Positions 3,671-4,160 of a DNA stretch of 4,335 nt are shown piece by piece. How positions within the stretch are numbered: the first letter of the stretch is position 1; each line of letters opens with the position of its first letter. The notes below the pieces were generated by a model. It was not told the origin of the DNA. It saw nothing but the letters and a program-made list of their open reading frames with translations, and did no database searches. Both the position numbers and the translations under genes were made by a program. The DNA is taken from the IMG/VR virus record IMGVR_UViG_2711768058_000007, positions 1-4,335 of that record; one strand, written 5' to 3'. This DNA comes from a virus. Taxonomy: Duplodnaviria; Heunggongvirae; Uroviricota; Caudoviricetes.

Positions 3671-3940
3671 TTACATCATCATTTCGCCGTCAGGCTGAGG
3701 CTCACTGCCACCATCAGGCTGAGACACGACACCATCTGAAACAGCACTGTCACCCGCACCGTCTTCAGGCCCGGGAGCAGCCGGTACCCCCAGCAGTTCA
3801 TCCAGAATGGCATCCACTTCAGCATCAAGACGCGCCTCAAGATTCTGACGAAGTTGCTGTTTCAGTGCGCTCCTGACTTCTTCAGAGCGCAGGACATCCT
3901 TCACTGCTTCAGCAGTGACCAGCGATTTTATTTCTGACAT
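3671..3940 (-). CDS. Hypothetical 89-aa protein with acidic, Gly/Pro/Asp-rich C-terminal tail
   Basis: Start set at the first ATG (3940); the listed ORF 3671..4054 begins with TTG and overlaps the upstream gene. Sequence MSEIKSLVTAEAVKDVLRSEEVRSALKQQLRQNLEARLDAEVDAILDELLG, then a low-complexity acidic tail ending MMM. Weak SD. No homolog recognised. Confidence 0.5.
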   Translation of the reverse strand: MSEIKSLVTAEAVKDVLRSEEVRSALKQQLRQNLEARLDAEVDAILDELLGVPAAPGPEDGAGDSAVSDGVVSQPDGGSEPQPDGEMMM

Positions 3941-3977
3941 GGTATTTACTCGTTGAAAGGTGTTGTTAAGAAAGTTG

Positions 3978-4160
3978 CTACGGAATGAGAGGCTCTTCGG
4001 GTTTTGTTCCGGCTGACTGACTGGCGCTGATTTTCTCAGCGGCCCTTTTGTCAATCTGTCTGCGCCAGAAATCTCTCACGACTCTGTACCCACCAGAAAG
4101 AAGATACAGCACACAAACTGCTGTACAGAAATACAATAAAATAAGCTGTATAAATGTCAT
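3978..4160 (-). CDS. Hypothetical 60-aa single-pass membrane protein
   Basis: MTFIQLILLYFCTAVCVLYLLSGGYRVVRDFWRRQIDKRAAEK...: N-terminal TM helix followed by a basic tail. GGAG lies 7 nt upstream of the ATG at 4160. Confidence 0.55.
   Translation of the reverse strand: MTFIQLILLYFCTAVCVLYLLSGGYRVVRDFWRRQIDKRAAEKISASQSAGTKPEEPLIP

Follow-up and report, generated by a model that had tools for sequence, protein, structure and literature searches.

What do two small genes contribute to a phage when they stand between its accessory cargo and its holin, and do they belong together at all? The question is raised by positions 3671 to 4160 of IMG/VR virus record IMGVR_UViG_2711768058_000007, of which we analysed one stretch of 4,335 nucleotides (nt; positions 1 to 4,335, hereafter the window), the late/lysis region of a lambdoid prophage of E. 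coli in which all genes lie on the minus strand. A preliminary description, made from the sequence alone, had noticed a 60-amino-acid (aa) membrane protein and an 89-aa acidic-tailed protein here, had considered both unassignable, and had speculated about a toxin-antitoxin-like or exclusion-like two-component system in the slot where Shiga toxin (Stx) phages carry their toxin genes. We found that the two genes encode members of the DUF1378 and DUF826 families and occupy the 3′ end of a cargo block that is conserved and lies directly upstream of a phage-21-type lysis cassette; the order of the block is nanS-p, an antisense PasC-type small-RNA (sRNA) gene, DUF1378, DUF826 and a terminator-like hairpin. 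What the pair does we can answer only tentatively, in favour of an accessory role around lysis.

The first of the two genes is a 60-aa ATG open reading frame (ORF) at 3978..4160 (−), with a GGAG Shine-Dalgarno sequence about 8 nt before the ATG. Its product scored 128.1 bits against PF07125 (DUF1378; gathering cut-off 25), with residues 1−59 aligned to positions 1−59 of the 59-position model, and matched PHROG 494 (phrog_494) at E=1e-37; by these matches it is a full-length DUF1378 member. The RefSeq 'DUF1378 family protein' identical to the window protein is present on 483 contigs. The second gene, an 89-aa ATG ORF at 3671..3940 (−), encodes a protein that scored 119.3 bits against PF05696 (DUF826; gathering cut-off 25; residues 1−73 on positions 1−73 of 75) and matched PHROG 311 (phrog_311) at E=5e-38, and is assigned to DUF826 on these grounds; E. 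coli and Shigella are rich in 89-aa close relatives. Ratios of nonsynonymous to synonymous substitution (dN/dS) were 0.27 for DUF1378 (45 distinct alleles from related loci) and 0.40 for DUF826 (57 distinct alleles; 0.28 in the helical part), with values of 0.21−0.28 in the structured parts of both proteins and about 0.5 in their tails. Because the Pfam scores lie far above the cut-off and dN/dS is low, the two are more than chance ORFs: both are genuine genes under purifying selection, at the coordinates first given for them. They are also far from unassignable, being catalogued in Pfam and PHROG and already named in RefSeq, although the families that profile searches identified carry no assigned function.

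The DUF1378 protein (6.9 kDa, isoelectric point (pI) 9.2) has its most hydrophobic 19-residue window beginning at residue 3, followed by a 35-residue tail with 8 K/R and 5 D/E, and AlphaFold2 modelled it as a single continuous helix over residues 3−49 with a disordered end. These features are those of a predicted bitopic inner-membrane protein, with a transmembrane (TM) helix at about residues 3−25, a basic helix next to the membrane that extends to about residue 49, and a disordered, Pro-rich end; by the positive-inside rule, about two residues would lie outside and the basic helix would reach into the cytoplasm. The DUF826 protein (9.3 kDa, pI 4.05) was modelled with helices at residues 10−17 and 20−50 (predicted local distance difference test score, pLDDT, >90) and with residues 51−89 disordered, the latter containing 8 D/E, no K/R, 7 G and 6 P and ending in EMMM. 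It is predicted to be a soluble, acidic, helical protein of the cytoplasm with an N-terminal domain at 1−51. Conservation across the family is limited to these helical N-terminal ~51 residues, and the acidic tail with its hydrophobic tip is a lineage-specific extension that the ~60-aa Salmonella-type members lack. Hydrophobicity, charge, composition and the AlphaFold2 models thus bore out the earlier picture of a single-pass membrane protein with a basic tail and a helical partner with an acidic Gly/Pro/Asp-rich tail ending in MMM.

The start of DUF826 needed closer attention, as the 89-aa ORF is nested in a 127-aa TTG-start ORF (3671..4054, −) and the annotated length of the gene varies among databases between 89, 122, 134 and 148 aa (window 3671-4054; locus L154 4308-4754; locus L001 5140-5508), 122 aa being the RefSeq call and 148 aa the 933Wp43 call. 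In the stretch where the longer ORF overlaps DUF1378, a frame test returned a ratio of 0.26 for the DUF1378 frame and 2.8 for the extension frame, the same as for the third frame, and the start codons of the longer frame varied among alleles. The 89-aa start is therefore supported as the correct one, since substitutions in the overlap fit the DUF1378 frame and the extension frame behaves like non-coding DNA. The two genes are separated by a 37-nt spacer (3941..3977, −), and because no stop codon in the DUF826 frame interrupts this spacer, gene-calling programs give DUF826 an earlier start; the long calls (122−148 aa) that overlap DUF1378 are probably over-extended. Spacer lengths in 163 loci carrying both genes were 37, 25, 40 or 35 nt, with 7 of 37 positions variable in the commonest class. 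A real fusion or a programmed frameshift, as might be read from the 127-aa ORF, from the fusion protein P0193 or from phrog_8301, was rejected on the non-coding-like evolution of the extension frame and on the allele-variable starts, and P0193 resembles a frameshift artefact. The phrog_8301 family (139 aa) was apparently assembled from over-long DUF826 calls.

Both families are very small and essentially enterobacterial. Among 50,697 phage records, DUF1378 occurred in 309 and DUF826 in 307. A word-indexed search of 5.8 billion proteins returned 134 DUF1378 and 106 DUF826 clusters, with E. coli or Shigella as the source of nearly all, and an exhaustive HMMER scan of 1.84 billion representative proteins returned 51 DUF826 clusters only; DUF1378 was found in just three of 185,579 species scanned with one genome per species (in Cedecea, Mixta and Lonsdalea). 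The pair was present in 828 of 5,426 complete E. coli genomes (~15%), with a median of 3 copies, and is found in essentially all classical Stx phages, lying between nanS-p and the holin gene S in 933W, VT2-Sakai, Min27, Phi24B and, in all, about 300 Stx and Stx-like phages. In Stx phages, therefore, the same pair follows stx and nanS-p, and the suggestion that it stands in place of stx cargo did not hold. The position of DUF1378 and DUF826 between nanS-p and S has been noted before without comment on their function (PMC10462455).

The neighbourhood of the pair was examined in the 163 loci with the order DUF1378 then DUF826. The nanS-p gene lay directly upstream in all 135 loci with enough DNA (gap 147−166 nt), and an S21-type holin 74−90 nt downstream in 135 of the 148 loci with enough DNA on that side; in the window, S begins 75 nt past DUF826. 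The 13 loci without one there were Mu-like prophages, in which nanS-p/DUF1378/DUF826 stands at the right end and a Com-like gene and a C5 methyltransferase come next. A third and more divergent lineage of the trio (L224) keeps the lambdoid order. Between the three lineages, identity was 56−69% for NanS-p, 49−61% for DUF1378 and 37−49% for DUF826, pointing to parallel divergence, and within E. coli different DUF826 tail types occur, by reassortment, with one DUF1378 type. Some Stx phage records (L003 2594-7071, LC727895; also L211-L223) contain a Mu-like phage with its own nanS-p-like esterase, DUF1378 and DUF826. Its esterase has a different N-terminal domain, and beyond its trio, at the right end, come a Com-like zinc-finger ORF and, at the position of mom in Mu, a C5 methyltransferase.

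Each family also occurred by itself. A DUF1378 gene of ~50 aa stood immediately after Rz/Rz1, with an ATGA overlap with the Rz stop and a GGAGA Shine-Dalgarno sequence, in two different cassettes, one of P21 type (L002, L233-L238) and one from Lonsdalea (L153); in L276 its neighbours were Rz/Rz1 on the upstream side and an HNH gene on the downstream side. In the Mu-like loci L151, L152, L274 and L275, DUF1378 followed the tail-fibre genes beside Dam and sometimes an acyltransferase, and in L268 a 72-aa variant directly preceded an S21-type holin in a locus lacking DUF826. The ~60-aa short-tail form of DUF826 lay between Rz and terS in most of ~55 Salmonella-type prophage loci, and none of these had DUF1378 within 7 kb. 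Because such standalone cases exist, neither protein strictly needs the other. The proposed pairing thus stood in one respect, as it recurs in 163 loci and, in reversed order, in a Mu-like lineage, and failed in another, as independent homologues, one part of what the preliminary description had named as counting against it, were found for both families. The reversed order, DUF826 then DUF1378 next to each other with nanS-p absent (L241, L243), is, as a second and independent arrangement, the best argument for functional pairing over mere linkage. The Rz-coupled locus L002 (3721-5153, OM816835) was deposited as Stenotrophomonas phage vB_SmeS_BUCT709 and contains a typical enterobacterial P21-type lysis cassette, consisting of an S21-like holin, a signal-anchor-release (SAR)-type lysozyme ~70-80% identical by eye to that of E. 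coli, and Rz/Rz1; human-gut metagenome contigs (L233-L238) carry a cassette nearly identical to it, and the host assignment of L002 may be doubtful.

How the pair is expressed was addressed from the DNA between nanS-p and DUF1378, which contained no convincing sense-strand promoter for it. A candidate at 4199..4172 matched the consensus at 9 of 12 positions and was rejected, since a transcript starting ~5 nt before the ATG would lack the Shine-Dalgarno sequence. Because no convincing promoter of its own was found, the pair is probably transcribed by read-through from upstream, mainly on the Q-antiterminated late transcript after induction. Consistent with this, the Phi24B homologue of 933Wp43 rose in quantitative PCR (qPCR) after norfloxacin induction with a late-gene-like profile (PMC3342100).

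Transcription reaching the end of DUF826 would meet an intrinsic-terminator-like element directly 3′ of its stop codon (3622..3662, −), identified by RNA folding. It consists of the hairpin AGGGGCUGUCGG-UGUGA-GCUGAUGCCCCU at 3662..3634, followed by the U-rich tract CUUGUUGUUGUG at 3633..3622. Across 24 distinct variants the stem letters differed and pairing was retained: 94.6% of cells were paired, compared with 43−61% for slid partners, and four stem pairs were changed on both sides. The element divides the nanS-p/DUF1378/DUF826 unit from S, and looks like an intrinsic terminator that would shield S from transcription that is not antiterminated. A second stem-loop, CUUCCG-GAUUG-CGGGAG (3603..3619, −), folds in the S leader, where 96.5% of cells were paired in a nearly invariant stem that leaves scant covariation information; it probably contributes to controlling the translation of S, a holin of S21 type with two start codons.

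The 148-nt interval between nanS-p and DUF1378 contains a further element, a predicted sRNA gene at 4187..4303 (+), which is antisense to the late operon, adjoins the nanS-p stop and diverges from DUF1378; the layout is kept in all three lineages of the trio. Its predicted promoter combines TTGACA (4187-4192), a 17-nt spacer and TTAAAA (4210-4215), all on the plus strand. The predicted RNA would run from about 4221 to 4303 (~83 nt; fold z-score −3.4), with a 5′ stem-loop, a body of ~35 nt before a GC hairpin (4255-4262 / 4287-4294) and a U8 tract (4296-4303) that stops 5 nt short of the nanS-p stop codon. The −35 box lies 26 nt upstream of the DUF1378 start, and the RNA would be complementary to the leader of a read-through mRNA, outside the ribosome-binding site and coding sequence of DUF1378.

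This arrangement recalls PasC and PasA, Hfq-dependent sRNAs of enteropathogenic E. coli (EPEC) E2348/69 whose homologues in enterohaemorrhagic E. coli (EHEC) are EcOnc51/52 (PMC8550237 Table S6). PasC spans 1290909 to 1290832 and abuts a nanS-p stop, and the minor PasA transcript has its end at the stop of the other nanS-p gene (PMC8550237 Table S6); a preprint by Zhu, Shabalina and Storz (2026) describes an 'esterase-PasA-holin' arrangement for these sRNAs. The window element shares with them the position abutting the nanS-p stop, the antisense orientation, the length of ~80 nt, the TTGACA box, the 5′ region, a GC hairpin with a CCGCCnG-type stem and a tract of 7−8 U. When it was aligned with PasA/PasC, the match was confined to the promoter box and the type of stem, and a short BLAST search with PasA (PasC being compared by alignment only) found no match in the window or in any collected locus. 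We therefore call it a PasA/PasC-type predicted sRNA gene by position and architecture only. Unlike in the window, the PasA/PasC genes of E2348/69 stand in loci without DUF1378 or DUF826: prophage PP2 of that strain has the sRNA genes and a 92%-identical holin and lacks both DUF genes, so that sRNA and pair are separable.

Rfam searches at E up to 1 gave no match on either strand of the window. In 933W (L154), the same nanS-p/DUF1378 spacer contains a weak Esr41-like Rfam match (4127-4204, −; 28 bits, E=0.04), and the stx2B-to-nanS-p interval contains clear matches to AsxR (1985-2037, −) and STnc100 (1778-1983, +), so that the 933W nanS-p gene has sRNA genes on both sides. A binding site for the 20-nt phage RNA 24B_1 has been predicted upstream of S and of vb_24B_23 in Phi24B (PMC4426718). 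As vb_24B_23 is the DUF1378 gene of that phage (L155), the site would fall at or near the spacer of the PasC-type element.

Given these contexts, we tentatively read DUF1378 and DUF826 as late-expressed, non-essential accessory proteins of the inner membrane acting around lysis, because they recur beside lysis cassettes, DUF1378 is translationally coupled to Rz in some of them, and expression is late. On this proposal, DUF1378 would span the inner membrane, N-terminus outside and C-terminus inside, and present a basic amphipathic helix on the cytoplasmic side, and DUF826 would be a cytoplasmic, probably oligomeric helical protein; late in infection both would act at the inner membrane, adjusting the time or the manner in which the holin/endolysin/spanin machinery is triggered. 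T4 offers a functional analogy, in which small membrane-anchored RI and the ~80-aa cytoplasmic helical protein RIII are non-essential, are expressed with lysis genes and modulate holin triggering. The likeness is that of a small membrane protein and a small cytoplasmic helical protein; RI has a periplasmic domain, whereas the DUF1378 tail is predicted to be cytoplasmic, and the RI and RIII genes, unlike DUF1378 and DUF826, do not stand beside the holin gene. The more specific form of the proposal, in which a membrane-anchored basic helix and its cytoplasmic acidic helical partner constitute a new two-protein lysis-timing regulator for pinholin/SAR-endolysin and related cassettes of enterobacterial temperate phages, we consider unlikely; if it were true, the pair would help set the burst time in Stx phages and hence the release of Shiga toxin and NanS-p.

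Several observations weigh against a role in lysis. The link to lysis is one of position only, and unrelated genes such as stx and bor classically insert at the margins of lysis cassettes. The Mu-like right-end copies adjoin tail-fibre, Dam/C5-methyltransferase, acyltransferase or nanS-p genes, and no lysis gene was found within their fetched flanks. That a hairpin separates DUF826 from S speaks for grouping the pair with the cargo before it and not with S, and the pair is dispensable for lysis, given that E2348/69 PP2 has a near-identical holin and no pair. Proteomic evidence does not help: the spot 'P5' attributed to the Phi24B homologue on two-dimensional gels was weakly identified (MASCOT 41, not significant; PMC3342100), and its reported 7.3 kDa and pI 5.3 match neither protein, so we set it aside and used the qPCR profile alone as expression evidence.

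Neither protein was homologous to any holin, antiholin, spanin or characterised family in Pfam, PHROG, NCBIfam, PADLOC, PDB, BFVD or hhalign comparisons. Profile searches against PDB gave chance-level matches only for both, and the DUF826 model had no match below E=2 in a BFVD fold search, as expected of a helix with a disordered tail. An NCBIfam match to a phosphotransferase system (PTS) accessory family (E-value 0.098) was dismissed as noise. The possibility that DUF1378 is the degenerate second TM helix and tail of a holin, prompted by a 'DRRKAA / DKRAAE' look-alike, was rejected at an hhalign probability of 0.3% in a profile comparison with S21-type holins; DUF1378 has one hydrophobic helix and no holin match in Pfam or PHROG. 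Literature searches by locus tag returned nothing relevant on the function of the pair.

The main rival is that the two genes are moron-type cargo, one or both proteins serving the lysogen and not the lytic cycle, which we regard as doubtful yet deserving serious consideration. DUF1378 might, for example, act in superinfection exclusion at the inner membrane by blocking DNA entry, with DUF826 as an acidic helper or an anti-restriction-like factor. HK97 gp15, P22 SieA and T4 Imm are inner-membrane exclusion proteins that block DNA entry, and the pair resembles these and the lambda morons bor and lom in being small, variable genes at module boundaries, one of them for the inner membrane. The constant company of other accessory cargo (nanS-p and sRNA genes, or in Mu-like phages Dam/C5 methyltransferases and an O-antigen-type acyltransferase), the patchy presence among otherwise similar prophages, the terminator-like hairpin downstream, the slots occupied (after tail fibres, after Rz, before S) and the small size and fast-evolving tails of both proteins all fit such cargo. 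The pair differs from morons and exclusion proteins in having neither a convincing promoter of its own nor detected homology to them, its sole expression data are late, lytic and dependent on induction, PADLOC returned no match, and the ATGA coupling of DUF1378 to Rz would be unusual for a moron.

It is about equally doubtful that the two proteins have no joint function and are unrelated small late genes inherited together in one nanS-p recombination module. The occurrence of each family alone in distant lineages and the reassortment of DUF826 tails against one DUF1378 type are both in keeping with this, and the genes are too short and too close for recombination to separate them often. Simple co-inheritance accounts less readily for a trio that has stayed intact through 40−60% sequence divergence and on two unrelated backbones, lambdoid and Mu-like, and the reversed adjacency in L241 and L243, where nanS-p is absent, is hard to explain by linkage when both families are rare.

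That nanS-p is upstream in every locus of the DUF1378-then-DUF826 order with enough DNA, in three lineages including the Mu-like one and with parallel divergence, raised a further reading, in which the pair helps the esterase, which has no signal peptide, in its localisation, release or activity, for instance as a membrane tether and an adaptor. We consider this quite improbable, because both families also occur apart from nanS-p (L002, L151-L153, L157 and similar, L241, L276), nanS-p occurs apart from the pair in E2348/69 PP2 and PP5, and neither protein suggests transport or carbohydrate binding.

Least probable by far is a toxin-antitoxin system, whether of type II (membrane toxin and acidic antitoxin) or of type I (DUF1378 as toxin, the PasC-like RNA as antisense repressor): a small single-helix membrane protein does adjoin a small acidic one, and a divergent ~80-nt sRNA gene complementary to the leader recalls tisB/istR-type loci, but Pfam, NCBIfam and PADLOC (the last at E up to 1) returned no toxin, antitoxin or defence family for either protein, there is no DNA-binding domain and no autoregulated promoter, the sRNA would leave the ribosome-binding site and coding sequence uncovered, and the partners are not obligatory. 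DUF1378 lacks DUF826 in L002, L151-L153, L233-L238, L268 and L274-L276, DUF826 lacks DUF1378 in about 50 Salmonella-type loci, the overlap with the Rz stop in L002 and L153 leaves no room for an sRNA, and PasA/PasC lack DUF1378 in E2348/69; type I was accordingly rejected as the principal explanation, DUF1378 and the sRNA being independent of each other, and the two-component speculation that had accompanied the pair went unsupported, with no convincing promoter of its own and with separable families.

The pair as such was known, as two catalogued DUF families common in prophages of Stx-producing E. coli (STEC). For DUF1378, the analysis adds the predicted topology, the purifying selection and three genomic contexts: ahead of S, coupled to Rz, and behind the tail-fibre genes of Mu-like prophages. 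To these come the invariant nanS-p partner, the reversed Mu-like pair, the hairpin, the PasC-type gene and the corrected DUF826 start. In phages that free Shiga toxin by lysing the host cell, the pair lies directly between toxin/esterase cargo and holin, and any effect of it on lysis timing or superinfection would matter for the release of the toxin and for how Stx phages spread.

The window prophage itself is of an stx-less, Stx-phage-like lambdoid type. The window is 99.9% identical to an annotated prophage of E. coli SHP24 (L001), whose locus comprises Q, a Dcm methyltransferase, HEPN/DUF262 genes, a second methyltransferase and tRNAs for Ile, Arg and Gly, with no stx, and then nanS-p (SASA esterase), DUF1378, DUF826, a class II holin, YdfR, lysozyme, Ant, Rz/Rz1 and a TonB-C protein; this is the layout of a Stx-phage late region with the stx slot empty. 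Upstream of the part covered by the window, the interval from Q to nanS-p in SHP24 (L001 8437-13534) holds two DNA methyltransferases, a DUF262 protein, a HEPN-like nuclease and the three tRNA genes, and no stx; the genes of this stretch of the Q-to-S cargo region form a defence-like island.

Within the window, the 3′ end of nanS-p, annotated in the SHP24 locus as a SASA-family sialate O-acetylesterase, occupies 4309..4335 (−), with its stop codon at 4309-4311. The lysis cassette is of phage-21 type and comprises S, ydfR, R, ant and Rz/Rz1. Its class II holin S (3380..3595, −; 71 aa; PF04971, 113 bits) has the dual start MYQM and confirms the holin first placed downstream of the pair. S is intact in the window, and the SHP24 record (L001 4850-5064) annotates a frameshifted pseudogene owing to a single-base length difference from the window. 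A conserved, uncharacterised YdfR/DUF1327 gene (3032-3376, −; 114 aa) lies between S and the endolysin gene; some relatives have one, and others such as 933W do not. The gene for a KilAC-domain antirepressor (Ant; 1479-2174, −) lies between endolysin and Rz/Rz1 and divides the cassette in the same way as in 933W. It is followed, just upstream of Rz, by a hydrophobic 43-aa ORF (1253-1384, −; MSDKLIMLAKGLCVIVGISFSLMLVALFLSITWMALTSAGLVG), which RefSeq calls hypothetical and which had no family match in NCBIfam or PADLOC. After Rz/Rz1 comes a gene for a 113-aa protein with a TonB C-terminal domain and a lipoprotein-like signal, LVMGC (118-459, −). It is located near the position of bor in 933W, where bor is on the opposite strand, and the tag 'Rz-like spanin' that PHROG 1267 gives to its family appears to be a mislabel.

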